Part shown: positions 3,255 to 62,457 of the stretch, piece after piece
How positions within the stretch are numbered: the stretch's first letter is position 1
Layout of the letters: the number at the start of each line of letters is the position of its first letter
Origin: a bacterium
GTDB lineage: Bacteria > Hydrothermota > 32-111
Reading direction: 5' to 3'
NCBI GenBank assembly: GCA_050239825.1
Contig: JBFXGO010000001.1
Span: 3,188 to 67,187 of the forward strand
DNA length: 64,000 bases
Made by a program: the position numbers and the translations under genes
The notes under the pieces: generated by a model
What the model was told of the DNA's origin: nothing
Seen by the model: only the letters and a program-made list of their open reading frames with translations
Databases searched by the model: none

Positions 3255-4250
3255 ATGAAAAAAATCTCTCTGAAGTCAATGATTGTTCTGATTCTATCAA
3301 TGTCATTTTTATTCTGCTTTGCAGATAAATGGCAGGATGACTATGATGAAGCAGACGGACTCTATTGGGACGGATACTATAAGGAGGCAAAGGAAAAGGC
3401 CGAAGAACTGATAGATTTTTCAAAAGATGAATTTGGAGTAAACTCGCCGGAGATGGGGCATGCCTACAATATTCTGGGGCTCATAAACAACAAACTTGGA
3501 AATACAACTCTTGCAGAGGAAAACTTTAGAAACGGAATAACTTCATTTGAAAAGGCCGGTTCAAAGGAGAAGAAAAATGTTGCAATATTGAAGGGAAATC
3601 TTGGAGACCTTCTTTACCAGAATTTTTATGATGAGGAGGCGCAGGAGTATCTTGAGGATGCCATAAAAATGCTTGAAGAACTGAATGACAAAGGTGATTA
3701 CAACGGCAATCTTGAAGTGCCTTACTATGACCTATATTCAATTTATTATGGCGGAGAGTACTATACGAAAGCCGCTTCGATGCTTAAAAAACTGATTGAA
3801 ATAGAGAAGGCGAACTACGGAAAATCAGACACTCTTGTGGGAATAGACCTGAAGAATCTCGGCTGGGTTTATGTAAAATCCGGAGATTACAGCGAAGCAG
3901 AAAGTTATATGAAACAGTCTTTGGAGGTTCTCGAAAAGAACGGCGGAGTTGATAAAGGTCAGCTGGGGCTTGCTTACAATGATTTCGGAGTGCTTTATGA
4001 CTATAAGGAAGATTACAGTAAAGCCATCACATACTATAAGAAGGCGGCTGATGTTTTCAAGAATTCCGGAAATGACAAGGAGCTGGGAAATACATACAAT
4101 AATCTCGGATTGGCACACGAGAAGCTCGGAGAGTTTTCATCTGCTGGAAGTTACTATGAAAAGGCCTATTATCTCTATAAGGATGTTTACGGAGAGGACG
4201 ATGAAAATACGATAGAAGTTAAGGCGAACTGGGACGCCGTAAAACAGTAA
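3255..4250 (+). CDS. Secreted tetratricopeptide (TPR) repeat protein.
   Basis: Signal peptide. Repeated 34-aa TPR-like units (AYNILGLINNKLGN..., GNLGDLLYQ..., AYNDFGVLYDYKEDYSKAITYYKKA, YNNLGLAHEKLGEFSSAGSYYEKA). Confidence 0.7.
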   Translation: MKKISLKSMIVLILSMSFLFCFADKWQDDYDEADGLYWDGYYKEAKEKAEELIDFSKDEFGVNSPEMGHAYNILGLINNKLGNTTLAEENFRNGITSFEKAGSKEKKNVAILKGNLGDLLYQNFYDEEAQEYLEDAIKMLEELNDKGDYNGNLEVPYYDLYSIYYGGEYYTKAASMLKKLIEIEKANYGKSDTLVGIDLKNLGWVYVKSGDYSEAESYMKQSLEVLEKNGGVDKGQLGLAYNDFGVLYDYKEDYSKAITYYKKAADVFKNSGNDKELGNTYNNLGLAHEKLGEFSSAGSYYEKAYYLYKDVYGEDDENTIEVKANWDAVKQ

Positions 4251-4265
4251 GCCGGTACGCTAACA

Positions 4266-4996
4266 GTGTCACCCTGAACGCCTCTGTGGTTATGACTATC
4301 GTGAAGGGTCTATCAGTTTATTGATAATTGAAGATTGAGCTGGGGCTACTGGCGGGCGTAGCGTCGGCTCGCACACTCCGCTTCGTCGCTTAATCAAGAT
4401 GGGATGTTGTGGGGACACACCGTAGGAATGTCCCCAAACCACTTGATGGGCGTCTGCGCGTAGCGTCCTCGCCGACTTGTAGCTTACGAGTATCAATATT
4501 TGTTATGGGGACACACCGAAGGAATGTCCCCAAATCTTCACAAACCATTGGCGCGGGTGTAATGGACGCGAGCGTCCATGATAGAAAAGAACGGGTTGCA
4601 CCAGAAGTTTTAGAAGATTAATGTAAAGACAAAATATTAATCAGCTCCCCGTATTTTGCTCATGGCACATGGCACACGGCTCAAGGCTGACTTGGTGGCT
4701 ACACGCAGGCATAGCGTCGGCTCGCACACTCCGCTTCGTCGCTTAATCAAGATGGGATAGCGGAGCAAGGGGAGAACCACTTGATGGGCGTCTGCGCGGA
4801 GCGTCCTCGCCGACTTTGAGCTTTCACTTTCAATAAGAATTGACTTGCTTGTCCTCGGAAAAACATTGAATAGCAGTGCGGAGATGCACTGGAATTTTTC
4901 CTCGGAACTGTAAAGGCAAGTTATTTAATCAGCTCCGCGTATTTTGCTCAAGGCTCATGGCTCAAGGCTGACTTGGTAGCTACCGGCGGGTATGCC
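4266..4996. repeat. Cluster A of a modular structured intergenic repeat family. It holds two 'core' units plus accessory modules and is non-coding.
   Basis: Core starts at about 4354 and 4709 (gggcgtagcgtcggctcgcacactccgcttcgtcgcttaatcaagatggga ... ccacttgatgggcgtctgcgcgKagcgtcctcgccgac). Hairpins GGGGACACACCGWAGGAATGTCCCC at 4411-4435 and 4507-4531. Module ggtgtaatggacgcgagcgtccatgatag...gggttgcaccagaag at about 4555-4620. The same modules recur at 21.4-22.4 kb. Confidence 0.85.
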
Positions 4997-5040
4997 CTTC
5001 CCCTTGACATAATTAACATTAATATATATATTTATTACTT

Positions 5041-5418
5041 ATGGATAAAAAAATAATGAAGACACTCAAATCTCATGCAAAGAACAGCTACTCTCCATAC
5101 TCGAAATACAAGGTTGTAGCATTGCTCTTTGCAGAGAGCGGAAACGCATACATCGGAGTCAATGTGGAAAATGCCTCCTACTCTCTGACAATGTGCGCGG
5201 AGAGGAGCGCTCTTTTCACCGCTGTTTCAAATGGTGAAAGGAAATTCGAAGGGATAATAATCTATTCCCCTTCAAAGACTCTGCCATATCCCTGCGGGGC
5301 ATGTCTTCAGGCTCTGAGCGAATTCGCAGGAAAAGACTTCATGGTGACTGTGACAAACGGGAAGGTAGAGAAGAGCGGAAAGTTTAATGAGTTTTTTCCG
5401 CACTCATTTAAATTATGA
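5041..5418 (+). CDS. cdd: Cytidine deaminase.
   Basis: Zinc-binding motifs CAERSA and PCGACLQ. Length 125 aa is typical of homotetrameric CDA. Confidence 0.9.
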   Translation: MDKKIMKTLKSHAKNSYSPYSKYKVVALLFAESGNAYIGVNVENASYSLTMCAERSALFTAVSNGERKFEGIIIYSPSKTLPYPCGACLQALSEFAGKDFMVTVTNGKVEKSGKFNEFFPHSFKL

Positions 5419-9600: not shown

Positions 9601-10349
9601 TGACAGACGATTTCGAAGAGAGAAATTTTGAGAACAGGATTCTCATCACATCTGTATGTGAAGATGATTCCTTCGTCCACTCCGGTATTGATGTTCTTCA
9701 TGCAAAGTATTCTCCCGACAGCTCTGCATCCTCCGGAGAGATAAGTTTCTTCTCAAATGAGAAACCTCTTGAAGATTCAATCACTCTTCCGTTGGAGTAT
9801 CCCATTGAAGTCAATTTCACTTCAAACATAGGTGTTTACATGGGCAGTATTCAGAGATATCTTCCATCTCTTACTGCAAAAGGCAATGCCTCTGTATCGT
9901 CTGAGAATAAGATATTCGTGAAAACGGACAGCTCATCATCTAATTATTACAGTGTATCCTCCGCGCAGGATGTTGATACTGTAACGGCAGTGATATACGA
10001 TTCAAATCTGAAGGAGTTCAGAAAGAGCATAATCATAAGACACAATTTTAAATCCAAGAGCGAAAAAAGATTCAATCTGTATCCCAATCCTTTTTCAGAT
10101 GCATTTACAATCTCCTTCACATCCTCCGCGGGCGGAACTATGAAATGGAAACTTATCGACTCAAGGGGATTTATAGCATCTGCAGGCGAGGAGATTGTGC
10201 AGGGAGGATACAATTCAATAAAGATTGCTCCGAATGACAGGATGCTTGAAAGAGACCTTGAAACAGGAATTTACATGTTCACGGCGGATTTCATATACTA
10301 CGGTAAAAGCGAAATTGTCCGTGAGAAAAGAAAGGTGGTGAAGTTATGA
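6675..10349 (+). CDS. Large secreted peptidase, C25 (gingipain)-like, with T9SS C-terminal sorting domain.
   Basis: Signal peptide. The His/Cys dyad context FFYGHGSYYT...FLFGTCQVGQF resembles C25 peptidases. C-terminus LYPNPFSDAFTISF... is a canonical T9SS CTD. Confidence 0.6.
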   Translation: MKFKALLFSLSFIAIALFSAENITVSTKGLKIEYSPVYVNNRLTDCAIEKNVLIKYLYINVPEGAVRVHVGDAEWKRNEGESDRKIVSKLYDLQYEYAGRQRILRIALYPARKQGSDTYTLKRVFIEVDFEKALSKSGKDNPLFASSLNREFVSKGFMSERSDRIPFMSYLDLKVKDSGIYRVDYKTIKDAGIDPQNLSVGNFGLYTQKNVMLPIDTAEFLSYLNPPKTPYLFVGDDDDDFEDGEYILFYGESPNGDSINFYMNYDIYNNPFSDYRHYMLVFNDKNPIKANNLVFSFEKDEHRIFNEKVMHYDSINPLLSGYGWVWKKFSLVKDSGDFEYEFDFETPDFAGESCTISLSFFFPNGGDTSTVEVKMNDSFLGTIEYGTEMRYTPAVFSFSSNNLAANNKVILTAKNIDNLTKSFYLSEFRVKYEADTDNPDDIVIKNASFRYLNLNPTSDIYCFVKNGGNYYLGGIAAGENISLDILSGEFAFLTNEIKKPENARWVDNSKIYADIEGCDILIIAGDNFREAVIPYTQYRKSQGYIVKTFEIGRIADAFGFGVSSPSAVKAFLEYGFREWKNFPEYLILLGSGSYDFKNRQNIHENRNVVPVYETGYGIFEEALLSASTTWCVDRWYALLTGEDQYIDIIPGRITAMNREEAFDALLKVIDYETKTPTFMKNKMMVISDDEYGGRISETFNETGFFVDAEDLSGLLESRFPVRKLYLMDYIGSLQGDEEHWPYNPGYKRDVRFVIRDYLNEGIAYGFFYGHGSYYTLTHEHILLYPDDIELLDNTNRYPIFLFGTCQVGQFDNDFGAIGAEFQKLPKSGFSAVIASTRAIFEYESVSILYNSFASNLIAGGFNTIGEYYLSMINDGRYFSTSHVLFGDPSMRVKKHLFDVSVLTEDTLMLGALNDIGYDAEFDFIGPMSVDLYQPFYTDSHDYLHILPYAYLYYVKSDGVMSRTETKIDSNTLSVYLTDDFEERNFENRILITSVCEDDSFVHSGIDVLHAKYSPDSSASSGEISFFSNEKPLEDSITLPLEYPIEVNFTSNIGVYMGSIQRYLPSLTAKGNASVSSENKIFVKTDSSSSNYYSVSSAQDVDTVTAVIYDSNLKEFRKSIIIRHNFKSKSEKRFNLYPNPFSDAFTISFTSSAGGTMKWKLIDSRGFIASAGEEIVQGGYNSIKIAPNDRMLERDLETGIYMFTADFIYYGKSEIVREKRKVVKL

Positions 10350-19083: not shown

Positions 19084-20005
19084 AAGGATCTGTGTACTCT
19101 ATGGAGGACCTTCCAAAGAGAGCGAAGTATCAAGACGCTCTGCTCTAAGGATAAACCATGCTCTACTAAAGAAGAATTATAACTGCAAGCTTCTTGAATA
19201 CAACGAAGACATAGTGAATTCACTGAAAGGAAATTTTTCCGCAATCTTCAATATAATGCACGGCAGACCCGGAGAGGATGGACTCGTGCAGGGAATATTT
19301 GAACATCTGAAGATACCCTATACCGGCTCCGGAGTAATTCCAAGCGCAATCACGATGAATAAGTACATAAATCAGCAGGTCGTAAAATCTTTCGGTGTTC
19401 CGGTTCTTAAATCCGTTTATGTTAGCAGGGAGATTATCGAAAAAGATCCTGATATAATTGAGAAGAGTTTTTCATCTCCTGTGATACTGAAACCGAATAC
19501 AGGAGGTTCCTCCGTGGGAACATTCATTTCATCCTCCAAGGATGCATTTTTGAAATTAAAAGAAAAGACAGCAGAATTCGGCGACTATATTGTCGAAGAG
19601 TATGTGGAGGGCGGGACAGAGGTGACTGTCGGTGTAATCAAAGACAATGGCGTAAAGATTTTGACTCCTCTGCAGTTGATTCCCAAGAATGCATTTTATG
19701 ATTATCATGCAAAATATACTTCGGGAATGACTGATTTTGTAATGCCCCCGAAATTAAGGAAAGATGTTATAGAAAGAATGATGAACATAAGCAGAGAGAT
19801 CTTCATAAATCTGAGAATGGACACATTTGCAAGAATTGATTTTATTGTCACAAAGAACGATGAACTCTACGAGCTTGAAGTGAATTCGATACCCGGAATG
19901 ACCGACCTTTCCGATCTTCCGCAGGAGGCCGAGTTTGACGGAATTGAATACGGCGACCTTGTGGAAAAACTTTTAAAGACTGCGGGAGTGAACAAAGATG
20001 CTTGA
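19076..20005 (+). CDS. ddl: D-alanine--D-alanine ligase.
   Basis: N-terminal CVLYGGPSKESEVS, ATP-grasp motifs ILKPNTGGSSVG and EEYVEGGTEVTVGV, and FYDYHAKYTSG. Confidence 0.9.
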   Translation: MDERICVLYGGPSKESEVSRRSALRINHALLKKNYNCKLLEYNEDIVNSLKGNFSAIFNIMHGRPGEDGLVQGIFEHLKIPYTGSGVIPSAITMNKYINQQVVKSFGVPVLKSVYVSREIIEKDPDIIEKSFSSPVILKPNTGGSSVGTFISSSKDAFLKLKEKTAEFGDYIVEEYVEGGTEVTVGVIKDNGVKILTPLQLIPKNAFYDYHAKYTSGMTDFVMPPKLRKDVIERMMNISREIFINLRMDTFARIDFIVTKNDELYELEVNSIPGMTDLSDLPQEAEFDGIEYGDLVEKLLKTAGVNKDA

Positions 20006-21308
20006 CGGATTGACATCAAAAATAAATAAGATTTTTCAGAATCTGAAAAACAAGGGAAGGGTGACGGACGAGGATATAAAGCTAACCATGCGCGAGATAC
20101 GCCTGGTGCTTCTGGAATCGGATGTGAATTACCTTATAGTCAAGGATTTCATCAAGAGCGTTGAAGACGAAGTGAGGGGACAGGATGTTTTAAAATCTTT
20201 AAAGCCCGAGCACATAATCATCAAGGCAGTCAATGATAAGATGGTAGAGATGCTATCCCATGGTGACATGAGAATTCATTTTAAAGGAAATCCCTCGGTT
20301 GTGATGCTTGTCGGTTTGCAGGGAACGGGAAAAACCACAACTGCCGGAAAGCTCGGCGCTCTCTTCAACAAACAGAACAGGCGCACAATGCTTGTGCCTT
20401 GCGATGTGAAGAGGCCTGCGGCATATGAACAGCTCAAGCAGGTTGCTGAAAAGACAAAGTGCCTTTTCTTTGACAGAATGTCTGGCGACCCGCAAAAAAC
20501 CGTTGCGGATGCCTTAAAAGATGCGCAGGAAAAGAATATTGACACTCTGATTCTTGATACTGCAGGGAGGCTCCACATAGATGATGAACTGATGAATGAA
20601 CTTGTAAATTTAGAGAAAAAAATCAAACCATCCGAAATTCTTTATATCGGTGATTCCATGACCGGACAGGATGCTGTTAAGAGCGCCGCCGGTTTTAAGG
20701 AGAAACTGAATTTGACGGGGATTATTCTGACGAAAATGGATGGAGACCAAAAAGGAGGAGCGGCACTCTCAATAGTCAAGGTGGCAGACTGCCCTATAAA
20801 ATATATTTGCACAGGCGAACATGCTGACAAGATTGAGGAGTTTCATCCGGAGCGTCTTGTTTCAAGGATCCTTGGGATGGGGGATATTCTCTCTCTTGTG
20901 GAAAGAGCTGAGGACCTTGTCTCTAAGGAAGAAGCTGAGAATATGGAGAAGAAACTTCTTGAAGGAAGATTTGATTTTGAAGATTACCTTGGACAGATAA
21001 AACAGATAAAGAAGATGGGACCATTAAAAGAGATTCTTAAAATGATACCGGGAGTCGGAGCGAAAATAAAGACCACTGGCGAGGAGGAGGAGAATCTGAA
21101 AAAAGTAGAGGCGATAATTTCGTCTATGACAAAAAAAGAAAGAAAGAATCCGCTTCTTCTCAATAACAAAAGCAGGATTAAGAGAATCGCCTCAGGAAGC
21201 GGCACAAGCGTGGCAATGGTCAAATATGTCATAAATCAGCATAAGAATATGAAAAAGATGATGAGTATGTTCAAAACCAAGGGATTCAACCCCAATAATT
21301 TCCGATAA
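19998..21308 (+). CDS. ffh: Signal recognition particle protein Ffh.
   Basis: GTPase motifs GLQGTGKTTTAGKL, DTAGR and TKMDGD. Met-rich M-domain at the C-terminus. Confidence 0.95.
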   Translation: MLDGLTSKINKIFQNLKNKGRVTDEDIKLTMREIRLVLLESDVNYLIVKDFIKSVEDEVRGQDVLKSLKPEHIIIKAVNDKMVEMLSHGDMRIHFKGNPSVVMLVGLQGTGKTTTAGKLGALFNKQNRRTMLVPCDVKRPAAYEQLKQVAEKTKCLFFDRMSGDPQKTVADALKDAQEKNIDTLILDTAGRLHIDDELMNELVNLEKKIKPSEILYIGDSMTGQDAVKSAAGFKEKLNLTGIILTKMDGDQKGGAALSIVKVADCPIKYICTGEHADKIEEFHPERLVSRILGMGDILSLVERAEDLVSKEEAENMEKKLLEGRFDFEDYLGQIKQIKKMGPLKEILKMIPGVGAKIKTTGEEEENLKKVEAIISSMTKKERKNPLLLNNKSRIKRIASGSGTSVAMVKYVINQHKNMKKMMSMFKTKGFNPNNFR

Positions 21309-21407
21309 CCTTTATTTCAGCCATCCTGAACGAAAATTCTTAGGGACGGTGGTTTCAAAAAGCTGGGTTTTTCAAACATCAAAAACATGAGTAATCAAGA
21401 AATATTA

Positions 21408-22403
21408 GGGGCTGCACGCGGGCGTAGCGTCGGCTCACACACTCCGCTTCGCCGCTTTATCAAGATGGGATAGCGTAGCAAGGGGTTGCCCACTTGATGG
21501 GCGTCTTCGCGGAGCGTCCTCGCCGACTTTGAGCTTACGTGTTTCAATATTTGTTATGGGGACACACCGAAGGAATGTCCCCACATTGGCGAGGGTGTAA
21601 TGGACGCGAGCGTCCATGATAGAAAAGAACGGGTTGTACCAGAAGTTTTAGAAGATTACTGTAAAGACAAAATCTTACTCAACCGTGTCACCCTGAACTT
21701 TGCTTTAGTTATGACTATCGTGAAGGGTCTATCAGTTTATTGTTAATTGATTATTGAAGATTGTTCGGGGGCTGTTGTCGGGCGTAGCGTCAGCTCGCAC
21801 ACTCCGCTTCGCCGCTTAATCAAGATGGGTTAGCGGAGCAAGGGGTTGCCCACTTGATGGGCGTCTGCGCGGAGCGTCCTCGCCGACTTGTAGCTTTCAC
21901 TTTCAATAAGTTATTTAATTGATTGAATCTTCACAAAGCATTGGCTGGGGTGAAATGTGCGCGAGCGCACATAATAGACGTCTCGGGTTGCACCAGAACT
22001 TTGCGAAGATTATTGAAAAGAATAAATATTAATCAGCTCTCCGTATTAAGTTCATGGCACACGGCACAAGGCTCACGGCTGATTTGGTGGCTGCTGACGG
22101 GCGTAGCGTCGGCTCACACACTTCGCTTCGCCGCTTTATCAAGATGGGATGTTGTGGGGACACACCGAAGGAATGTCCCCAAACCACTTGATGGGCGTCT
22201 GCGCGGAGCGTCCTCGCCGACTTTGAGCTACGAGCATCAATAAGTTAATTAATTGCCTGTTGCAGTGGGGACACACCGAAGGAATGTCCCCACATTGGCG
22301 AGGGTGTAATGGACGCGAGCGTCCATGATAGGAAGAACGGGTTGCACCAGAAGTTTGTGAAGATTACTGTAAAGAATAAATATTAATCAGCTATCCGTAT
22401 TGT
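21408..22403. repeat. Cluster B of the same structured repeat family as cluster A: three core units and three or four accessory modules. Non-coding.
   Basis: Cores at about 21419, 21779 and 22098. Hairpins GGGGACACACCGAAGGAATGTCCCC at about 21551, 22157 and 22271. Module ggtgtaatggacgcgagcgtccatgatag at about 21590 and 22297, with a covarying variant ggtgaaatgtgcgcgagcgcacataatag at about 21944-22010. Confidence 0.85.
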
Positions 22404-22465: not shown

Positions 22466-22498
22466 CAAAAAAAAGCCCCCTTGAAAGGGGGCTTTTTT
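22466..22498 (-). terminator. Rho-independent terminator downstream of the minus-strand ompA-like gene; it reads on both strands.
   Basis: aaaaaaaaGCCCCCTTgaaaAGGGGGCtttttt: perfect GC-rich 8-bp stem, GAAA loop, flanking A/T runs, immediately after the stop at 22507. Confidence 0.8.
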
Positions 22499-22506
22499 CA
22501 AAGCAA

Positions 22507-24390
22507 TTATTCGCCGAGAATCAAAAATTCTATTCTTCTGTTTAATGCTCTTCCGTCCTTTGTGCCATTGTCGGCAACAGGCATCATTTCGCCGAAGCCC
22601 TTTGCTACAACTCTCATAGGGTCTATTCCATGGGACACGAGATAATTCCTCACAGATTCGGCTCTTGCCTGAGAGAGAGAAAGGTTTGATGAATCGGAGC
22701 CGACAGAATCAGTGTGCCCCTGAATTTCTATTCTAACCTTCGGGTTGTCATTTAAAAGTTTTACAGCCTCATCAAGCGCATAGAATGATTCCGGAAGTAT
22801 TGTAGCTTTTCCGCTCTCAAAGTAAATTCCCCTGAGAGTTATCTTTCCGCCCTTCTTAAGCATTTCAATATTAAGAATGAGAGTCTTGTCAGCTTCCACG
22901 ACAACAGGCATTGCATAAGATATGTAACCTTCTGCAACTGCGGCGATTGTGTATGTGCCCGGGTCGAGAGTTATTCTGTAAACACCTGTGGCGGCATCAG
23001 GCAAAATCTCCGGAATTCCTGTCTGAGGGAATGAAATCTTGGCAAGAAGAGTCTCTCCCGAAGCTTTGTCCGAGACCTTTCCCGTGATTATTCCCTTTTC
23101 CACCTTCTTGGGGTTCAGAGCAAAATCAACAATCTTCGTCTGTGCCTTTTCTATAATGACACCCTTCTCCTGCCACTTGAATCCCTCTCTCTCTGCGCGT
23201 ATTCTTATTGTTCCGGGATTGACTGTAATCGAGTAGATTCCCAATGAATCGGAGACTATGCTCACTGAATCGCTGTATCCCGGGAATGTTATTATTGCCG
23301 ACATGGGCACTCCGGTCTCTCCGTTTATTACTTTGCCGGTGATGATGGTCTTCGGCTCCTCTTTCTTTACAATGATTTCCTCTTTTTTGAAATCATAATA
23401 ATATGTGAGGCCGAAATATGCTTTCCAATCGGGTGCTCCGCCCCATCCGTCGCTTAGGAGGAATGTGTCATTAACTGAATTATGTATCGGTTCAAGGTCG
23501 GGCAAAAATTTAGGTATTCTATAGTCAGCGCCGAAGTCAATCACAAGTCCTATCGGAGTATCGAATCTCACTCCGCCGGACATATAATACACATATCTGG
23601 CATCAAACATTCTTGAAGCATTGTATTTGAATCCGTAAACTTCAATAAATGGAATGAAAGAGCCGAATTTAATAGACAATCCTCCTGCGAAATCTATCAG
23701 AGTGGGATTATTGCCTGCCGGCATATTGACTAATTTTGTATAGCCTCCGTTGAGGTTTATTCCGAGCGGGACCTGAGAAGATGTGACAAATGAAATCAAT
23801 CCGCGCACTCCCCAGTCCGCTCCGTTTGTTGTGAACTTCCTGAATATTCCTCCGTCGTTCTTGATGTAATCTATTGAAAATGATGAGGCATTGGACTGCC
23901 CGGGAGTGTAAAGGTCGCCTGTTGTGAAGCGATAGAATCCAAGTACTCCTATGTCCGCATTCTTCGTTGCTCCGAAGAGTCCGCCTGTAGTCAGCTTAAG
24001 ATTGACCTCAGTGTCGCCGAAGCCGTAACTGGCGTAGTTGGTATTTTCATCCGCTCTTCCTGGCGCCTCCGGAGTGTCAATAGCATCGATGAAACCTTCG
24101 GAGACCACGCTCACTTCAAGCCAGTTTGTAAAAGAGTATCCTATACCGAACTGGATGCCGCCTCCCGCATATGTGTCCCATGAATGGTATGTGGAATCAT
24201 CAATTACCGAGACATAATCCACCATGAAATCACGGGTAAAGCCGTTTATATGAAAACCGAGCTGAAGCCTCTGTTCCTGTATAATCGCGCCGACAGAGTG
24301 CAAAAGACCTGAGGAAGTGTAGAGTGAGGGCGCCGCTGACAAATTCAAAATAAATAGCAATGCCAACACAATAAGAGTCAGTTTCTTCAT
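22507..24390 (-). CDS. OmpA-family outer-membrane protein with carboxypeptidase-regulatory-like domains.
   Basis: Signal peptide. C-terminal OmpA domain (NPKVRIEIQGHTDSVGS...NRRIEF). Two CarbopepD_reg-like segments (GKVINGETGVPMSA..., GKVSDKASGETLLA...). Confidence 0.8.
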   Translation of the reverse strand: MKKLTLIVLALLFILNLSAAPSLYTSSGLLHSVGAIIQEQRLQLGFHINGFTRDFMVDYVSVIDDSTYHSWDTYAGGGIQFGIGYSFTNWLEVSVVSEGFIDAIDTPEAPGRADENTNYASYGFGDTEVNLKLTTGGLFGATKNADIGVLGFYRFTTGDLYTPGQSNASSFSIDYIKNDGGIFRKFTTNGADWGVRGLISFVTSSQVPLGINLNGGYTKLVNMPAGNNPTLIDFAGGLSIKFGSFIPFIEVYGFKYNASRMFDARYVYYMSGGVRFDTPIGLVIDFGADYRIPKFLPDLEPIHNSVNDTFLLSDGWGGAPDWKAYFGLTYYYDFKKEEIIVKKEEPKTIITGKVINGETGVPMSAIITFPGYSDSVSIVSDSLGIYSITVNPGTIRIRAEREGFKWQEKGVIIEKAQTKIVDFALNPKKVEKGIITGKVSDKASGETLLAKISFPQTGIPEILPDAATGVYRITLDPGTYTIAAVAEGYISYAMPVVVEADKTLILNIEMLKKGGKITLRGIYFESGKATILPESFYALDEAVKLLNDNPKVRIEIQGHTDSVGSDSSNLSLSQARAESVRNYLVSHGIDPMRVVAKGFGEMMPVADNGTKDGRALNRRIEFLILGE

Positions 24391-25676: not shown

Positions 25677-25704
25677 AATATTGATTTGGAAATAAGATTA
25701 ATAG

Positions 25705-25888
25705 GGCGGGTTCTTCCAATCCGAAGATATCCTTTTCATTAATATTTATGTCCGTTACCTAAATGGAAAAACGGTTACCCTAAAATCATTGCTCAATTAT
25801 ATTACCTCTGCCAATCCTTCGTTAATCTCTTTGGAGAACTCTCTTGTGAATGCTAATCCCTCTTTACACAACTTCCTTGACAAGTCTC
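25705..25888 (-). repeat. 190-bp repeat, copy 1. It is contiguous with the transposase-like fragment and is an inverted copy of 62422-62613.
   Basis: Reverse complement aligns to 62422-62613 at about 94% identity (12 mismatches by eye), including the shared taggGtaaccgtttttccatttaggtaacgg segment. Confidence 0.8.
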
Positions 25889-25896
25889 GAAAGTTT

Positions 25897-26136
25897 TCAT
25901 AGAGGTGTTCCAAGTCCCCGCTCAATATACCCATTAGCATAATCATCATTACTTGACAGATATATCTCTCGCTCACTCTTCATTATTCGGTTCAATGTCT
26001 CCTCCAATAACAACTGCAAAGAACTGTTGCTTAATTCATTAATGTCAGCTATAATATCTTTTGGTAGGGACTCTTTAGGGTTCATTGGGTTCCTCCATGT
26101 AAAAGTTTTTGTTCGCTTTTTGGAGAGAGTCTGCAT
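25897..26136 (-). pseudogene. Transposase-like N-terminal fragment, possibly IS256/mutator family; truncated and frameshifted.
   Basis: ...LEETLNRIMKSEREIYLSSNDDYANGYIERGLGTPL resembles the IS256 N-terminal region (E..HLG...RNGY..R.L.T). A +1 shift continues into ...DLSRKLCKEGLAF...EVI*. No DDE core follows. Confidence 0.35.
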
Positions 26137-26232
26137 ACTCTCTCCAAACCTTTTTTAGTCTCCTTCTCATTAATCTTATTATATTCCACTCCTAATATTT
26201 TTACACAACTTTTATTATACTCCCTATACGGC

Positions 26233-26503
26233 AAATGACTTTACAAAGATACTTGAAGATAAGAAGATAAAGATAAGCATGGACGGCAAGGGTCGTGCTG
26301 TGGATAATATCTTCATAGAGCGGTTGTGGAGAACAGTTAAATATGAGCATGCTTACATCTGGAGGTTTGATACGATTAAAGAGCTAAGAGAAGGACTAAA
26401 AGATTACTTTGATTACTATAACAATAAAAGAGAGCATCAATCATTAGGATACAAAACTCCATCTGAAGTTTATGGAGGTATTATAAATGTTCAAACAGCT
26501 TAA
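26233..26503 (+). pseudogene. IS3-family transposase (OrfB) C-terminal remnant.
   Basis: ...FTKILEDKKIKISMDGKGRAVDNIFIERLWRTVKYEHAY...YYNNKREHQSLGYKTPSEVY is the characteristic tail of the IS3 integrase-core domain. The DDE core and OrfA are missing. Confidence 0.75.
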
Positions 26504-26533
26504 TAATAAACACAATTTATCAAAATCTTGTGT

Positions 26534-26562
26534 CTTGACAGGAGAGACATTATCCAATAAAA
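26534..26562 (+). promoter_or_regulatory. Sigma70-type promoter TTGACA-N17-TAAAAT for the restriction-modification operon.
   Basis: Consensus -35 at 26534-26539 and -10 at 26557-26562, 25 nt upstream of the proposed ATG at 26588. Confidence 0.5.
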
Positions 26563-26587
26563 TATATATGTATATTTTAATTAAAAC

Positions 26588-28079
26588 TATGTCAAACAAT
26601 AATTCTAAATCAACAATAGGAAAAAACCTTAAAAAGATAAGGCCAAAAGAAGATGTTTCTCAGGATCGTTTATCCATGCTGACTGATTTGTCGCTGAATA
26701 CTATTGCTACAGTAGAATCTGGCTTGAATCCAAACCCAACTATTGAAACACCGACAAAAATTACCCAAGCATTAGATGTAAAAGTGGACGACCTAATTAA
26801 AAAAAATATGAGCCAAACTATTACTTCATTATTGAATAAAACAAAAATTGATCCCTCGTGGTCTTTTTCCGATAAAACAAGAAAAGATACGGCGTATATT
26901 ACGCATGGATATCATCGTTACCCCGCAAAATTTATTCCGCAAATAGTTTCTCGTTTGGCGGAAAAATATACGCGAATAGGTGATTTTATTGTTGATCCGT
27001 TCGGTGGTTGCGGAACAACCCTTGTTGAAGCAAAAGTTATGGGACGACCATCAATTGTCGTTGATATTAACCCCGTTGCTGTTTTGATTACGAAAGCAAA
27101 AATCACAGCAATTGATCCTGCTAAAATTGAAAAGGAATTTACAACTTTTCAAAAGAGATTGGAAACTTACAGCGAAAAAACAAAAGTAAAAGCCCCTAAA
27201 CACGAAAGAATTGACTATTGGTTTAAGCCAGAAGAAAAAAGAAAACTTGCTTTTATTCTTGCCGAGATTTCAAAAATAAAAGATCAAGATGTCCAAGATT
27301 TCTTTTTCTGCGGGTTTTCAAACATTCTCAAAAATTGCTCAATCTGGCTACAAAAAAGCAATAAACCAACGAGAGATTTTGATAAAAAGCCTTCAGAGCC
27401 GATTAAAGCATTTTTGAAACAAATAAAAATGATGTTGCGTGGTAATGCACGATTATTTGAATTGTTATCAGAAAAAGGTTATTTAAAAATTCCGAGCAAG
27501 GTGATTTGCACGGATGCAAGAACAATTCCGGCAAAAGATAATAGCGTTAGTTTGATTGTTACTTCGCCTCCTTATGTAACCTCTTACGAATACGCCGATT
27601 TACACCAGCTCACTGCTTTATGGTTAGAATATACCATAGATTTGAGCGACTTCCGAAAACGATTTATTGGCACTTCATATCACAACAAAAAAGATTTAAC
27701 TCTTAATAGCGTGATTGCAGAAAATATCAGAAAAAAATTGTTAGAAAAAGACAAAAAAACTGCCGAGGAAGTTTCAACATACTTTAGCGAAATGAATCAG
27801 GTATTTGTTGAAATGAAAAGAATATTAAAGAAAGGCGGGAAAACCTGTATTGTTATTGGCAATACGAGCTTAAAGGGCGTTGAAATACTTAATGCGGAGG
27901 TTTTTGTTGAGCAATTACAAAACTTGGGATTAAAAATCGCTGATATTATCAAAAGAGAAATTCCGTCAAAAAATTTGCCGTCCGTTCGAGACGAAAAGAC
28001 GGGTAAATTTGCGAGCATAAATGATAAAAATAGAGTTTCTGTTTATCCAACAGAATACATTTTGATAATGGAAAAATAA
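26588..28079 (+). CDS. DNA amino-methyltransferase (N6-adenine or N4-cytosine) with a fused N-terminal XRE-family HTH domain.
   Basis: HTH IGKNLKKIRPKEDVSQDRLSMLTDLSLNTIATVESG. AdoMet motif I HRYPAKFIPQIVSRL...GDFIVDPFGGCGTT. Catalytic motif IV IVTSPPY about 185 aa downstream. The ORF-track start at 26487 is rejected (it lies upstream of the promoter). Confidence 0.8.
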
Positions 28080-28083
28080 AACT

Positions 28084-28752
28084 ATGACTATAGACGACCT
28101 TATCAAAATTTACGAAACAAAAAAGAAAAAATATGGCATAGAAGCATATCGTCATATTTCAAATGTTTTGAAAGAAGCAAAGGAATTGCACAAAAAAGAT
28201 TTTACAGGTGATGATCATGAGCAATCATGGCGCGCTTTCAAGGGTAAAAATTTAGAAAAAATGATTGAATATATTATAACAGACGAGGTTAATGCTCTTG
28301 GGTTACAAGTAATAAATGGCAATAGCCTTGAAAGGACGAATGGATCAAACCTTTCAAAAGAGTTGAGTTTAGTTAAAAGAAATTTGATTGTTGATTATGG
28401 CGAGTTCGGCTCGCATTTGCCCGATGTAGATTTGATTATTTACGACCCAAACACAAGCAAAGTTGTCGCTGTTTTATCAAGCAAAGTAACTTTACGGGAA
28501 AGAATAGCCCAAACTGGTTATTGGAAAATAAAACTTGCCTCCGACGAAGCGACAAAACATATCAAAGTTTATTTCGTAACGCCTGATGAGGACGGAACGC
28601 TAACGATTAAAACACCTGCGAAGAAAGGACGAGCTATTGTTGAAGTAGACACAGACGGCAGTTATGTTTTGAGTGAGACGGACATTGAGGAAAGTAATAA
28701 AGTAAAAATGTTTGACAAGTTTATCGATGACTTGAAAAAGCTATTGAAGTAA
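28084..28752 (+). CDS. Putative type II restriction endonuclease (222 aa).
   Basis: Sandwiched between two MTase genes with 4-nt and 3-nt spacers. Acidic/lysine cluster ...YGEFGSHLPDVDLIIYDPNTSKVVAVLSSK... is compatible with a PD-(D/E)xK-like site. No other homology recognised. Confidence 0.45.
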   Translation: MTIDDLIKIYETKKKKYGIEAYRHISNVLKEAKELHKKDFTGDDHEQSWRAFKGKNLEKMIEYIITDEVNALGLQVINGNSLERTNGSNLSKELSLVKRNLIVDYGEFGSHLPDVDLIIYDPNTSKVVAVLSSKVTLRERIAQTGYWKIKLASDEATKHIKVYFVTPDEDGTLTIKTPAKKGRAIVEVDTDGSYVLSETDIEESNKVKMFDKFIDDLKKLLK

Positions 28753-28755
28753 TTT

Positions 28756-29847
28756 ATGACCCAGATCAAGAATGATAACCGAATGGGGTGGATCCGCAAT
28801 TTAGAGAAATTGAGCAAAAAAGAAACTGATAGCTATTTTGTTGAATATGAGATTGCGACAGAGTGCCATATAGCAGGTATACTGGATTACGGTACCGGTA
28901 TTATTTTGTGTGGAGGGTTAACCATAGAGAAAGATGAGAATGGGCTTTATCATTATTTACTAAAAGTAAGGTATGCGGGCGTAAAAGAACCTTATTACAA
29001 TAATAAAGCGAATAAAAAAGGATATTATTTTAAGGACGGCATACTTGGTGAACTCCTTTCCATTTTTTCTTTATACTTTCAATGTCGTTTTTATTTGATA
29101 GCAACTTTTACTGGAGAATTAACCAATCATGGATTAAGAATAAAAACAGGAAATAAGTTCATTTATAGAGCGTGTAATCCAGTCATTCACCCACAAATTT
29201 TTTCTTCCAAGAGTAGAGACCTTGCGATTGGATTATCCGATTTTTTAGATACAATAAAATCATTAGACACGAAGTATCATCAACAGTTTATTTTGACATG
29301 TTTTCACTATGCCCAATCATTAAAAGAAATAGGCGTTGACAGCGAAATGGTATTTATCAGGTTGGTATCCGCAATTGAATCAATTTCAAAATTTATCAAA
29401 TTGGATAAAAAAGTTGATTTATTTAATGGAAAAACTTTTGAAAATATTGTAAAGAGCGATGCTCTTTCAAAAACAGAAACGGAAGAATTAAAGAAAACTT
29501 TTGAGAATAGAAAATCAAAAGCAAGATTTATTACTTTTATTGAAAAATACTCAAGCGGATATTTTAAGGGCGGGAATTACAAAGCAAAACACTGCAAAAT
29601 CTCTAAAAAGCAGCTGCCAAAAGTTTTGCGGACTATTTATGACGCTCGCTCAGCTTATTTACATAACGGCGAGCCAATGTATTTAAGCCAGCCAATGTAT
29701 GGTGGAGAAAAATGGGACACTGATCCGAATATAGGCATGATAGTAGACAATAGGTCTTTCTCCGTTTCGCAAAAATTACCATTTACCTATTTTTTTGAAG
29801 GTTTAGTTAGACAATGTTTGTTGAATTTCTTGAAGCAAAAAAAATAA
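28756..29847 (+). CDS. Uncharacterised protein (363 aa) with a C-terminal Rx4H motif; possible HEPN/Abi-like nuclease.
   Basis: ...LRTIYDARSAYLHNGEP... contains R-x4-H. No MTase or PD-(D/E)xK motif. Embedded in the RM operon. Confidence 0.4.
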   Translation: MTQIKNDNRMGWIRNLEKLSKKETDSYFVEYEIATECHIAGILDYGTGIILCGGLTIEKDENGLYHYLLKVRYAGVKEPYYNNKANKKGYYFKDGILGELLSIFSLYFQCRFYLIATFTGELTNHGLRIKTGNKFIYRACNPVIHPQIFSSKSRDLAIGLSDFLDTIKSLDTKYHQQFILTCFHYAQSLKEIGVDSEMVFIRLVSAIESISKFIKLDKKVDLFNGKTFENIVKSDALSKTETEELKKTFENRKSKARFITFIEKYSSGYFKGGNYKAKHCKISKKQLPKVLRTIYDARSAYLHNGEPMYLSQPMYGGEKWDTDPNIGMIVDNRSFSVSQKLPFTYFFEGLVRQCLLNFLKQKK

Positions 29848-29848
29848 T

Positions 29849-30532
29849 ATGGATAAACTTCAAATAGAATCAACAACACTTTGGGATTTTCCGAGACAAA
29901 ATTATGGTGACAAGCCACATGGAAACAATAAATACAATGGCGTAACGCCGGCTTTTGTCATTTGGAATTTACTCCAAAGATATACCAAAGAGGGTGATTT
30001 AGTTGTCGATCCGATGTGCGGGAGCGGAACAACAATTGATGTTGCAAAAGAATTGAACCGAAAAGTAATCGGCTATGATTTGAATATTGTTAGGTCCGAT
30101 GTAATTAAAAACGATTCTCGGAAAATCCCGCTTGCGGACAATTCTGTTGATTTTGTTTTTATTGATTCACCATACTCCGATAATATTAATTATTCTGACA
30201 ACAAGGAATGTATCGGTAAAATTTCTTGCGAGAAAACAGAATTTTATGATGAATTAGAAAAAACCGCTTCCGAAATTGCAAGAATTTTGAAGCCAGGAAA
30301 AGTTATGGGCTGGGTTATTGCTGATCAATGGATTAAAAAGAAATTTACGGCTGTTGGATTTTTGATGTGGCAAAGATTGGAAAAACATTTTGAGCCTATG
30401 GATATTGTTTGTTTAACAAGACACAATCAAACGTCAAACACTGGAGTTTGGCACAACAGAGCAAGGCAGTTTAATTTTTATTTAAGAGGTTTTAAATATT
30501 TGTTTATAATGAGGAAGCCAGAAAATAAATAG
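29849..30532 (+). CDS. Small DNA amino-methyltransferase (227 aa).
   Basis: Motif I context NGVTPAFVIWNLLQRYTKEGDLVVDPMCGSGTT (pfam01555-like). Motif IV FIDSPY about 50 aa later. Then RILKPGKVMGWVI. Confidence 0.75.
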   Translation: MDKLQIESTTLWDFPRQNYGDKPHGNNKYNGVTPAFVIWNLLQRYTKEGDLVVDPMCGSGTTIDVAKELNRKVIGYDLNIVRSDVIKNDSRKIPLADNSVDFVFIDSPYSDNINYSDNKECIGKISCEKTEFYDELEKTASEIARILKPGKVMGWVIADQWIKKKFTAVGFLMWQRLEKHFEPMDIVCLTRHNQTSNTGVWHNRARQFNFYLRGFKYLFIMRKPENK

Positions 30533-42710: not shown

Positions 42711-45700
42711 ATGTTTTTTAAGAAAGGAAAAGGCGAAGAGAACAGAACGGAAAAAAAGACGGAACCGGTGGTTCTCAAAAAAAAGAAGGGGATAAAACCC
42801 GCCTCCTTTGAAAAGAAAGAGAAGGTTGTTCTTAAACCCGGCGGAGTTGAAGATACAGCCGAAGACCTCTCAGCAGGTCTCGACGATCTCATTTCCGACC
42901 TTGATGCGCAGGCGCAGAATGACGAATCCGAAGGAGAAGATTCCCTTGATTCCCTTACTGATATGCTTGAATCAATTGATGAGTTTAAAGAAGATAATGA
43001 AACAAAAGAAGAGAAGGATGATGATTCAAAACAGAAGCAGGAAAATGAAAAAGAGGATATCGCCGACTCAATTTCGGATTTGATGGATTTATCGGAGTCA
43101 TTTGAAGATATTGATGAGAAGATCGAGAAAGAAGCAGAAGCTAAGACAGCTGCCGCCAAGCCTGAAGAAACAGAAGCAAAAAAAGAAGTGGCATCTGAAA
43201 AGAAAAAAATAACAGACGATGGAATAGAATCTCTTGAAGAGCTTGCAGAGGGGATAGGAGTCCTTGAAGAGACTAATAGTGAGGTGGCTTACATTAAAGA
43301 AGTTGATTTGGATGTTGAGACGACCACCGACGCAAAAATCGATAATGCGGAGGAGATATCCCTGGACGATGAAAAAGAAACAGAGGAGGAATCTGTTGAG
43401 GCGATGCCGACTGTAAGCGAAGAAATTGTGCTTGAAGAGAACAAACAAAAGGAAAAGGCGGAAGAAAACTCCGCAGAAGCGCAGACGCAAAAAGAAGAAA
43501 TGGAAGAGACCTCAGCCGATGATTTTTCAGGAATGCTCGATGCTGTTGAAACCGCTGTCGAAGAAGAAGCAGAAAAACCTGCTCATGCCGAGGAATCCTT
43601 CGGAAGAAAAGATGAAATGATTGACTTCGATTCCGATACATCCAATCGCATACAAATTGCAGCGGAAGAGAAAACGGTTATGGCTGACGATGAGAAACTG
43701 AATGACCTTGTCTCAAATATAATGAAGAAATCAATGGAAGAGAAGGAACTGCGCGATAAGATAAATGAAAACAACAAACAGTTGAACAGCTTGAAGAAGG
43801 ATATTGAGAGAGAAAAGACTCAGCTGTCAAAGATCTCCGAAGAGTACAGAAAGCAGAAGACGAAGCTGGAGTTGCTTGACAAAGAGACCTCCGAGAGGTC
43901 TTCAAAGCTGAACTCCGATTTCGAGAGCATGAAGAAAGAATACGAACTGAAGAAAAAAGAGGTTGCTTCTCTCAATGAAGCCGTGCTGACTGCCCGCCAA
44001 GAGAAGAAAGAGTTTGAGGAACTTCTAAAAGATGTAAAGACAAAATTTGAAAATAACAGCAATTCTCTCGACCAGATGAAGCTTGAAAAAGAAAAAACCG
44101 AGAATGAACTTGTCAGAGTCAAGCGAAGCATAGATGACCTTAAAAAATCTCAGACAGACCTTGAGAACGGCATAAACCAGCAGAAAAATCAGGAAAAGGA
44201 AATAAGAACCCTGCTGGAAAAAGCTAAAAAAGATTCGGAGGCGGTGAGCAGGAAAAATGAGGAAGAGAAGAAAATATTAAAGGATATAGAGAGCAAGATA
44301 GAGAGCAAGAGAGATTATCTCAACTCTCTCGAATCTGGAATGGGCAAGACGATAAATCAGGAAATGGATCTCGGAGAAAAGATTAAGGAGCTTAAGAAGC
44401 GCGCCGATGAGATGAAAACGCAGAATGCGGCGAATGAAAAGGAGAGCGAAAAGATTAGTAAAGAGAAGAATTCTCTTGAAAAGGATTTTCAGAAGACAAA
44501 AACAAACTACGAGCAGATGAAATTGCAAGCCGAAGAGTATCAGACAAAAGCCAAGAGGGCAAGAGAGGATTATGACAAGGCAATAGAATTGCTGGCAGAC
44601 AAAGAGAGGCAGATTAAGGAGAAAGAGGCATATTACGGAGAAATGGAGACTCTTATCAACTCCAATGAAAAGAAGAAAAAGAATATTGAATCCGAGATTT
44701 CCGAAAACGGAAAGAAACTTGATGAAATAAAGCAGACCATTAAAGTCAATCAGGCGAAACTTGATGAAATCATGAAGGGCTATTCGGGATTTTCGGACAG
44801 GTATGTTGAAATAAAGAATGAAATGGCTGAATATGAGAAGCAGAGAAAAACCTTAATCGCAGACATAGAAAAAACACGCAAAGAAAAAATTGAGACTGAG
44901 AAGAGTCTCTCCGAATTGAAGGAAGATGAAGCCTCCTTGAAGGAGAACATAAAGAATGACACTCAAGAGCTTGAAAAACTCAAATCAAATGCAGAAATGA
45001 TATTGGCAAATTTCAATGGCAAAGAGCTTGAACGAAAACAGCTTGTTGAAGAGATTGTCAGGAAGAACGAGGAGAAGAACAGTCTCATAGATGAAATAGA
45101 AAAAATCAAAATTGAAGTGCTTGAGCAGGAGGAGATATTAAGCGGTGTTGAAAATCAGGTAAAGGAGAATACCGTCCGGCTTGAGAAGGTAGAGAAGGAG
45201 AGTAAATCGATATTAGAGGAGAAAGAGACGGAACTCTCTATAATTGATGAGGAAATAGCGGGGAAAAATAGAATTCTTGAAGAGATGGAAAATAAAATCT
45301 CACAATTAAAAGAGCGCGAAGCTAATATTGAGAATGAGATAAAAGAGAGGATGACAGGAGTATCAGCCGCAGTTGAGGAGATGGAGAAGGAAAAACAAAA
45401 GCTGAATGAGGAGATAATCGAACTGCAGAATGAATCCCTCTCACTGAAGTCGGACAAGGAAGAGCTTGACAAGTGGCTTAAAGAGAAGGAGGCGGAAGCT
45501 GTAAGATACGGAGGGAAACTGAAAGAAGACAAGGAGAAACTTGAAAATCTCCAAACGAGTGTGCAAATGGCAACTGTGGATTTGGAGGATGTGAGACTTC
45601 AGAAGGAGAGCTTTGCCCAGGAAATTGAGGAGCTGAAAGCCGAGGAGATTAAGAACCGCACCATGCTTGAAGAGAGAAAGCGAGAGTTTGAAGAGTTGAA

Positions 45701-61872: not shown

Positions 61873-62457
61873 ATGAAAACTGCAAGTGTGATGTTTCTTG
61901 TAATCTGTACTTTGCTTTGGTTGGGAATTTCCGCAGAATTTATTCAGAGAGATGTAACTTTTCAATCCAATTCGCTTACCTTGAAAGATTCTCTAGGTTA
62001 CATTTATCTTTCTCTAACCAGTTGTTCAGATATTAAGTTAACTGATGCCATTGGAAAGCCAATAGTGCCGATAAAGACAATTTCAATTTTAGTTCCGTCT
62101 GACGCAGAAAATACTGAAATAAGTTATCAAGCGATTAAGAGTGAAACTATTCATATTGAAAATATTCCATTTCCAACACAACCGCCTAAACTTACTCTTG
62201 AAACAGAAGATATTTTTATTGTTCCAGATTCATCAGTTTATTCATCAGGCGAATTGTATCCCGAGAATAATGGTAAAATGGCAAATATCAGTGAGAAAAA
62301 TGGCTGGAAAGTAGTGAAGTCGGATGTTTATCCTATCCAATACATAATGGCTGATAGTCTATTAATATTCATCGAGTCAATTAGTTATAGTGTCTCATAT
62401 TTAAGAGATGGAAGTATTACGGAGACTTGTCAAGGAAGTTGTGTAAAGATGGATTAG
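61873..62457 (+). CDS. Hypothetical secreted protein. Its C-terminal about 12 codons lie inside the 190-bp repeat.
   Basis: Signal peptide MKTASVMFLVICTLLWLGISA. No recognisable domain. Confidence 0.4.
   Translation: MKTASVMFLVICTLLWLGISAEFIQRDVTFQSNSLTLKDSLGYIYLSLTSCSDIKLTDAIGKPIVPIKTISILVPSDAENTEISYQAIKSETIHIENIPFPTQPPKLTLETEDIFIVPDSSVYSSGELYPENNGKMANISEKNGWKVVKSDVYPIQYIMADSLLIFIESISYSVSYLRDGSITETCQGSCVKMD

Follow-up and report, generated by a model that had tools for sequence, protein, structure and literature searches.

A non-coding, hairpin-built mosaic repeat fills two gene-free gaps in a Stahlbacteria/WOR-3-related bacterium

The stretch of 64,000 nucleotides (nt) of contig JBFXGO010000001.1 analysed here (the window) has a gap of 790 nt between a TPR gene (3255-4250) and cdd, the gene for cytidine deaminase (5041-5418), and the question was what kind of sequence occupies it. 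A preliminary description had found no credible open reading frame (ORF) in this gap and had read it as a set of reusable, structured modules shared with a second region, belonging either to a family of structured non-coding RNAs (ncRNAs) or to a repeat family resembling repetitive extragenic palindromes (REPs), bacterial interspersed mosaic elements (BIMEs) or miniature inverted-repeat transposable elements (MITEs). The second region is a gap of 1198 nt bounded by ffh (19998-21308) and, in convergent orientation, an OmpA-like gene (22507-24390), and both gaps were composed of common repeats, here termed array A (4262-4996) and array B (~21320-22400). What fills these two gene-free gaps of a Stahlbacteria/WOR-3-related bacterium is a non-coding unit of ~355 nt built from hairpins. 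Between the two branches of the earlier reading the repeat family was favoured, by the presence or absence of arrays, the mosaicism of the copies, the breaks in assemblies and the restriction of the family to one lineage.

The TPR gene and cdd were confirmed as the flanks of the first gap, and ORFs inside the arrays had no Pfam match and were not conserved from unit to unit. The 3' half of the core repeat (38 nt, at most one mismatch) was found five times, with starts at 4439, 4777, 21490, 21850 and 22184, all on the + strand, and none was expected by chance (100 shuffles). The hairpin GGGGACA-caccgWaggaa-TGTCCCC was also found five times on the + strand (4411, 4507, 21558, 22156 and 22267), again with none expected. 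Two copies of each fall in array A and three in array B, exactly as first described, and the ggtgtaatggacgcgagcgtccat...gggttgcaccagaag module reported alongside them was recovered at 4546-4643 and in three further copies in array B. The claim that a heptad tract lies ahead of each core did not survive: heptad tracts were placed by Tandem Repeats Finder (TRF) at 4658-4688 (ahead of core 2), 4946-4969 (with no core after it) and 22052-22080 (ahead of core 5), so that three of the five cores have no heptads ahead of them: cores 1 and 4 follow a different module, Ma, and core 3 follows unique sequence. The Ma module, which takes up the first 77 nt of array A (4262-4338), and a long hairpin domain in the second half of the unit were both missing from the earlier account.

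The units follow one another head to tail, all as direct copies, with a spacing of 354-360 nt, and the G+C content of the arrays is 46-52% compared with ~40% for the whole window. The unit, derived from both window clusters and four related loci (loci outside the window are designated by L and a number), has its parts in a fixed order, which was identical in nine of nine mapped array regions: a leader P, which is CTGGCGGCAGG-like, the core hairpin, a linker L beginning TCAATAAG, a second hairpin (D or T in type), the end motif E, which reads TGTAAAGACAAAATATTAATCA, and a slot that holds either Ma or three to four heptads. The core hairpin is long (100-140 nt) and imperfect. The second domain is also a long hairpin. 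Its D type consists of the outer stem AATCTTC...GAAGATT around an inner hairpin, ATGGACGC/GCGTCCAT; in the T type the stem reaches 33 bp at most, and its loop is composed of GAATAG and a further hairpin. The GGGGACA hairpin is an optional insert, located either in the core tip or at the start of the second domain, and arrays start and stop at differing phases of the unit. In other loci the heptad slot contains different heptads (TACCAGC, CTCGTAA and ATWAACT).

All parts of both arrays lie on the + strand. The left edge of array A is formed by the Ma module (4262-4338), the 44-nt centre of which (4268-4311) reads GTCACCCTGAAC-N20-GTGAAGGGTCT. Core 1 follows (4347-4492; covariance model score 123.7 bits), its hairpin extending from GTCGGC at 4363 to GCCGAC at 4476 and carrying a GGGGACA hairpin inside the tip (4411-4435); a free-standing copy of this hairpin (4507-4531) begins the second domain of unit 1, which is of type D and runs with E from 4533 to 4643, one of four such copies in the window. 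A heptad microsatellite, GGCWCAN/GCTCATG, of 4.4 copies by TRF (4658-4688) leads to core 2 (4700-4830; hairpin 4716-4814; 136.5 bits), which has the alternative tip TAGCGGAGCAAGGGGAGAA and is followed by a second domain of type T ending in E (4843-4931), with the loop GAATAG plus CAGTGC-GGAGAT-GCACTG. The second heptad tract and then an orphan leader P (together 4946-4993) make up the right edge. Array B opens with a partial Ma-like start (21320-21332), after which come core 3 (21413-21543), a GGGGACA hairpin (21558-21582), D and E; the second Ma copy (21681-21757, 87% identical to the copy at 4262-4338; 44-nt centre 21687-21730), core 4 (21773-21903), D' and E; heptads (22052-22080) and core 5 (22092-22237) with a GGGGACA hairpin in it (22156-22180); and finally another GGGGACA hairpin (22267-22291) with D and E, ending at 22389. 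Folded as DNA, the T hairpin gave z = -2.8 in the window (4843-4931), and the homologue at L015 has a perfect 33-bp stem (z = -13.2); the T module was linked by BLAST to loci L015 and L004. The GGGGACA hairpin copy at 4405-4440 gave z = -2.9. The fold of type D alone is weakly stable (z = -1.4), and four pairs of its inner hairpin change on both sides across loci.

The structural premise of the preliminary description was upheld for the core. The nested pairing proposed there, of gtcggc/ctccgc with gcggag/gccgac, was recovered by single-sequence and by consensus folds, the hairpin spanning 99-114 nt in the window and the covariance model having 131 positions. An alignment of 14 cores generated a consensus of 24 pairs, 11 of which were changed on both sides. 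In the model-derived alignment, which was itself fitted to the covariance model, the indicative values were 95.6% of cells with standard pairs, compared with 30-45% when partners were slid by one to three columns, and 11 pairs changed on both sides, compared with 0-5. None of 500 shuffles matched the observed pairing, double-change count or covariation score, and covariation lay well above the controls. The core helices are kept by compensatory change: at least five versions of the inner stem were seen (CTCCGC/GCGGAG, CTTCGC/GCGAAG, CTGCTC/GAACAG, TCAGTC/GACTGA and TCATC/GATGA), and the outer pairs are GTCGGC/GCCGAC and GGGC/AGCT. The facing strands of the internal loop, TCRCACA and CGTCCTC, are invariant in all 14 cores, and the tip, of 16 to ~60 nt, is swapped wholesale.

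The consensus fold energy was -20.9 kcal/mol on the + strand compared with -27.1 kcal/mol on the reverse strand. Counted on the + strand, the core has 38 G-U cells, which the opposite strand would read as A-C, compared with four A-C cells, and this count had been considered as a pointer to + as the folding strand; the argument was dropped, because G-U pairs occur on the reverse strand as well, one being common to 14 of 14 sequences, and its consensus energy is the better of the two. Such strand symmetry of the core fold is characteristic of palindromic DNA elements. At L002 (340-358 and 743-760) and L013 (8270-8295) the core is represented by solo 5' fragments, each consisting of the leader plus AGCGTCGGCTCRCACACT and then unrelated sequence. 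The breakpoints fall within the invariant loop or a short distance beyond it, and no solo 3' halves were seen.

Comparison with related genomes identified both arrays as additional sequence at junctions that are otherwise short. The junction between ffh and the OmpA-like gene measures 40-47 nt in three relatives (Ffh 86%, 83% and 79% identical) compared with 1198 nt here. The short gap of the relatives consists of the ffh stop codon and then a shared bidirectional terminator, whereas in the window ~1.16 kb, including array B, separates the stop codon (21308) from the terminator (22477-22491). The TPR/cdd junction is 113 nt in the metagenome-assembled genome (MAG) STE_119 and 106 nt in a metagenome relative compared with 790 nt here; in the relatives it holds a GC-rich hairpin and the cdd promoter, and array A takes the place of the hairpin with the promoter kept. 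The window promoter (5004-5032; TTGACA, 17 nt, TATATT; 11 of 12 consensus positions) lines up with those found at the relatives' empty sites, and the right edge of array A is 10 nt ahead of it. Flanking genes, promoter and terminator are undamaged by either array. No target-site duplication was present at either filled site when compared with the empty sites, and the ends of the unit are not inverted copies of each other, so that terminal inverted repeats are lacking. STE_119 has the family at another locus (L002), from which it follows that the family is older than the split of the two genomes and that its positions are not.

Short-read contigs from the same sample end 43 nt past the TPR stop codon and 61 nt past the ffh stop codon; the arrays break short-read assemblies. 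In a lineage with Cdd 70% identical, strains with an identical Cdd protein show three different contexts upstream of cdd, the point of divergence being the leader of a single core or the sequence just upstream of it, and family sites in this lineage coincide with synteny breaks. The copies within the window are mosaic, with segments of several modules common to both clusters, core 1 being closest to core 5 (93%) while other segments pair differently between the two clusters.

Two further observations were made at these junctions. In the window and at the aligned positions of relatives (L010, L011 and L012), 8 nt separate the end of the cdd promoter from the ATG, a distance that suggests a leaderless cdd mRNA. 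A GC-rich hairpin, GGGGCGGACCTGTGTGTCCGCCC, occurs in both orientations, at L003 (-; ~1445-1420 and ~1100-1075), L004 (-; ~1738-1712) and L010 (~9915-9945), and is a separate REP-like family; one copy is predicted to act also as an intrinsic terminator, and another fills the 'empty' TPR/cdd site of STE_119.

The family has a narrow distribution. The window Ffh shares 79% identity with its counterpart in a Candidatus Stahlbacteria MAG and ~64% with those of WOR-3 MAGs. An exact-pattern scan for the core in one genome per species (185,579 species) matched a single MAG, STE_119 (Ffh 86% identical), and a metagenome scan matched two contigs from one sample, giving three loci only from both scans together. 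BLAST of the modules against loci fetched via cdd homologs yielded more cores in the lineage with Cdd 70% identical, and the covariance model located 15 full copies and one truncated copy in ~230 kb of related DNA, all intergenic. The core and modules were not found in IMG/VR, nor by blastn in 50,697 phage and 72,556 plasmid records. As far as these scans extend, the family appears restricted to relatives of one candidate lineage. Among the listed papers mentioning Stahlbacteria, no title or abstract pointed to work on repeats. With the tip left aside, identity among the cores of the window is 88-94%, and between them and the STE_119 copy it is 87-89%; the ffh and cdd DNA of the same two genomes reaches only 76.5-77.6%. 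A second subfamily, in which the basal stem is replaced and the loops are kept, is common to two lineages; it is 73% identical between them and ~50% identical to the main family, and this divergence, together with the sharing between two lineages, indicates that the subfamilies are old.

The Ma module brings the arrays into contact with a second class of hairpin repeat. Small GIY-YIG proteins (Ssn) cut single-stranded DNA beside the hairpin repeat NTS/SRM, which flanks the ssn gene and is also scattered through the genome (PMC11893778), and in Neisseria the NTS repeat is part of the dRS3 repeats in arrays of Neisseria intergenic mosaic elements (NIMEs) (PMC1797815). At L014 an inverted pair of a 44-nt frame, GTCAYYCTGAAC-N20-GTGAAGRRTCT (4928-4971, +, and 5267-5310, -), encloses a pseudogene of ssn (small GIY-YIG; 4981-5262) with an in-frame stop codon TAA, and the same frame is found as solo copies in the arrays, at 4268-4311 and 21687-21730 of the window. 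Apart from these and the partial start at 21320-21332 there is no Ma, the other junctions having heptads or nothing. The arm of the frame varies by paired changes (ATCCT/AGGAT, ACCCT/AGGGT and ATTCT/AGAAT). An ssn homolog at L019, 71% identical to the L014 product, lies within a perfect 27-nt inverted repeat, CTGTCATTCCGGCGCAGGCCGGAATCC, and the strict SRM pattern HGTCWYN(0-2)YYVSBRHN(0-5)WNVSBRGN(0-2)RNCYNB matched only there (9962-9989 and 10290-10317). The ends of Ma fit the published NTS/SRM frame (PMC11893778) but the strict pattern does not match, and since the Ma loop, at ~20 nt, is too long for it, Ma is considered an SRM-like variant and not a member. No ssn gene was found in the 64-kb window. 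The closest intact homolog, MGE3062873.1, is a GIY-YIG protein of 99 amino acids that is 74% identical, and its accession is 848 away from that of the window Ffh (MGE3062025.1), so an intact Ssn homolog very probably belongs to the gene set of this MAG. Co-occurrence is the sole evidence that suggests a link between the core and an Ssn nuclease.

These data appear to suggest, with the balance tipping slightly in favour, that the arrays consist of a lineage-restricted, non-coding mosaic repeat, which moves by duplication from one intergenic site to another and there grows into head-to-tail arrays. The selected trait would be the formation of hairpins in single-stranded nucleic acid combined with a sequence-specific loop read by a trans-acting protein, and the invariant loops are likely to be protein recognition sites. 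This protein would copy, nick or recombine the element, as REP-associated tyrosine transposases (RAYTs) do for REPs and SsnA does for NTS. Growth of the arrays and exchange of modules would come about by recombination between copies, making the arrays substrates for rearrangement. The arrays would have no promoters of their own and would be transcribed only passively, within neighbouring mRNAs, and array B would become a 1.2-kb 3' untranslated region (UTR) of ffh. In the most speculative step, the presence of Ma at array edges might tie the arrays to an Ssn-type GIY-YIG nuclease and make them an analogue of the Neisseria NIME arrays.

Several points weigh against a mobile repeat of this kind. 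The window yielded neither a transposase or RAYT gene nor an ssn gene, and no mobilising enzyme is tied to the core; the search for Y1/RAYT transposases covered the window ORFs that were scanned or could be annotated from the loci of relatives, a few (for example 42711-46979) falling outside the scan. A fixed two-domain build that is conserved above coding DNA is also expected of a functional RNA. Two insertions without target-site duplication, of units without terminal inverted repeats, do not in themselves indicate a copying route. The site upstream of cdd is also occupied in the more distant lineage, and ancestral presence with later loss is possible for array A. Ma is found at just two to three of about seven module junctions, departs from the SRM pattern as published and on its own does not fold with significant stability. 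The core alignment draws on 15 copies from about five lineages with shared ancestry, and with so few related copies the covariation statistics are indicative and not a formal test.

Among known repeats, the behaviour of the family would on the best reading be closest to that of Neisseria NIMEs, BIMEs and BOX/ERIC elements. NIMEs are likewise non-coding intergenic arrays of reusable modules (PMC1797815, PMC11893778), with hairpin repeats of the type that flanks ssn within and at the edges of arrays; further parallels are the Ssn homolog that this genome very probably has, the coincidence of arrays with recombination or rearrangement breakpoints and the differing G+C content of modules. In NIMEs, however, each RS element is bracketed by a 20-bp dRS3 and more than 100 RS families occur in free order (PMC1797815), whereas here the Ssn-type module is occasional (two to three junctions), has a long loop and departs from the published pattern, and two large covarying hairpins dominate, in fixed order and repeating every ~355 nt. 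NIME arrays are also largely syntenic among Neisseria genomes, unlike the arrays here, which belong to another phylum. REPs and BIMEs are extragenic, often lie between stop codon and terminator and are palindromic with compensatory change (PMC11893778, PMC3184786), and they share with the present family mosaic arrays with linkers that vary between strains and are passively transcribed. REPs measure only 20-40 nt and alternate in orientation in BIMEs and REPINs, in contrast to hairpins of 100-140 nt that are all direct here, and no RAYT was found among the scanned or annotated window ORFs. The preliminary comparison with REP, BIME and MITE elements was sound as to behaviour and failed as to membership, on account of size, head-to-tail copies, the lack of terminal inverted repeats and target-site duplications and the absence of a RAYT from those ORFs.

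BOX elements of Streptococcus pneumoniae are modular (boxA, n copies of boxB, boxC), fold stably and are intergenic, features that the present units share. ERIC/IRU elements of enterobacteria are imperfect palindromes of 127 bp with variants that have internal insertions at fixed points, which parallel the alternative tips of the core and the inserted GGGGACA hairpin. Neither has sequence similarity to the family; both are mostly single elements with no arrays of 355-nt period, and neither has a heptad microsatellite or an Ssn-type module. Short tandemly repeated repetitive (STRR) sequences of filamentous cyanobacteria are intergenic tandem runs of 7-nt units, with several heptamers per lineage as here, but the heptads of the present family come in three to four copies at one fixed slot of a larger unit, and there is no phylogenetic connection. 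Since the family fails the defining features of NIMEs, REP/BIME and BOX/ERIC elements, it is a member of none of them; it is a new family, from an unstudied phylum, of a known general kind.

The ncRNA branch of the earlier reading would make each unit a gene, or a repeated domain, for a structured RNA of ~250-300 nt with two hairpin domains and a loop that binds a protein or ligand, tandem copies serving dosage or acting as a sponge; the tandem small RNA array NsiR1 of cyanobacteria is a parallel. It accommodates the covarying helices with invariant loops, cores conserved above neighbouring coding DNA, a module order that is the same in all lineages, the raised G+C content and the single orientation within each array, six of seven arrays being co-directional with a neighbouring gene. 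The seventh, at L003, is antisense to both neighbours, and the reverse strand folds as well or better in consensus. No unit has a promoter-like or terminator-like site: scans for sigma-70-type promoters and intrinsic terminators detected neither inside array A or B, and no array hairpin is followed by a T-run on either strand. In a tandem array of small RNA genes of the NsiR1 kind each unit would have its own promoter and terminator, which these scans did not show. Rfam 15 gave no match at the gathering threshold in the window, L002, L003, L004 or L015, and all that permissive scans added was a chance match to snoR09 (E = 1) and hits on the terminator at 22.42-22.51 kb. The arrays are moreover missing from orthologous sites of close relatives and never syntenic, tips are swapped wholesale and truncated 5' fragments exist. 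This reading is considered rather unlikely. A variant closer to the mobile repeat, in which the two-hairpin unit of ~300 nt is a new class of folded single-stranded element and the TCRCACA/CGTCCTC loop is recognised or cleaved by a dedicated enzyme, possibly an Ssn-type GIY-YIG nuclease or its partner, that copies the unit into terminator-proximal intergenic sites, is judged improbable; the breakage of the solo 5' fragments in or shortly after the invariant loop fits cleavage there. If true, repeats would be mobilised here by a new route that involves no transposase, and the family would be the first NIME-like system outside Neisseria.

Less probable again is that the arrays are cis-acting parts of mRNAs, namely 3'-UTR stabilisers, insulators or terminator substitutes, as REP and BOX can be, selected via ffh, the TPR gene or cdd. 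The placement of array B precisely in the interval that separates the ffh stop codon from the shared terminator, the replacement by array A of the GC-rich hairpin that follows the TPR gene of STE_119 and the stable hairpins in the orientation of the upstream genes are consistent with it, but the flanking genes are unrelated from locus to locus, 40-113 nt suffices for relatives at the same junctions and hairpins followed by a T-run are lacking on both strands; an effect on the host is more likely a by-product than the reason for the existence of the family. An array of integron attC-like sites, such as a cluster of attC sites lacking an integrase (CALIN), or of another site-specific recombination system, with the 230-nt remainders as gene-less cassettes, is very improbable indeed. 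The core resembles attC in that two stems, one of them basal, are separated by a central loop without pairing and topped by a tip that varies from 16 to 60 nt, and the sites are co-oriented with cassette-like size and spacing; its outermost pairs, however, have no RYYYAAC/GTTRRRY boxes, the supposed cassettes are themselves conserved modules, and the sole tyrosine recombinase found in the window is XerD, which scored 340 bits with TIGR02225, above the cutoff, compared with 132 bits with the integron-integrase model (cutoff 265).

Other identities were rejected outright. The earlier statement that the sequence is not CRISPR, tRNA or a known riboswitch agrees with the results: the unit is ~355 nt and not 24-48 nt, the parts between cores are repeated modules, no cas gene was found among the annotated window ORFs, Rfam gave no family at its gathering thresholds and ARAGORN no tRNA or tmRNA. 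A MITE is contradicted by the missing terminal inverted repeats and target-site duplications and by array ends at differing phases of the unit. Degraded insertion sequence (IS), prophage or plasmid DNA, which the preliminary description had held up as an alternative source of the modules, found no support, the modules having no similarity to phages, plasmids, IMG/VR or the rve remnant of the window described below. Signal recognition particle (SRP) RNA, considered on account of the adjacency to ffh, had no match to the Rfam SRP families, and the array is absent beside ffh in relatives. The TGGCAC heptads and the CTGGCGGCAGG leader were also considered as sigma-54-like elements, a reading dropped when the spacing to a GC/TTGC element, judged by eye, proved inconsistent between copies.

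Interspersed hairpin repeats (REP/BIME, NIME, BOX and ERIC) affect genome rearrangement, mRNA fate and gene exchange, and to our knowledge they have been described almost only from cultured Proteobacteria and Firmicutes. For an uncultured lineage related to WOR-3 and Stahlbacteria the build is unusual, combining large covarying hairpins, invariant loops, a two-domain unit, a 355-nt period and a heptad slot. Should the Ssn link be true, NIME-type arrays would not be peculiar to Neisseria, and the partnership of Ssn with hairpins would have yielded mosaic repeats more than once. In practical terms, the arrays interrupt short-read assemblies of the lineage and mark sites of synteny loss.

Some features outside the arrays were also recorded. 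The C-terminal remnant of an IS3-type transposase (rve_3/rve_2; 26240-26485, +; Pfam E = 5.5e-18), which has no start codon, lies in an 810-nt gap (25677-26486) and shares no sequence with the repeat modules. The left arm of an inverted repeat of 189 nt is found in the same gap (25700-25888); its partner (62422-62610) is 36.5 kb away and 94% complementary, and the pair encloses restriction-modification (R-M) genes, ComEC, XerD and a polysaccharide cluster. Beside the left arm is a broken ORF on the - strand, MNPKESLPKDII...NGYIERGLGTPL*, followed by a frameshift; it had no Pfam match, and an IS256-like identity considered for this region (25.7-26.1 kb) was set aside as being without Pfam support. 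The R-M genes (26487-30532; two N6_N4 methylases and a BsaWI-like endonuclease) follow directly after the IS remnants, which suggests a mobile island. At L014 (5925-6165) the 3' end of a tRNA (GAATCCCAGCCTCTCCGAATAATCAAT) is duplicated ~125 nt downstream, adjoining a core, and resembles the att scar of an integrated element. Near the right end of the window, seven tandem copies of ~126 nt (62829-63881; 62-88% identity to the reference copy) lie within an ORF (62771-64000) that presumably encodes a repeat-domain protein.

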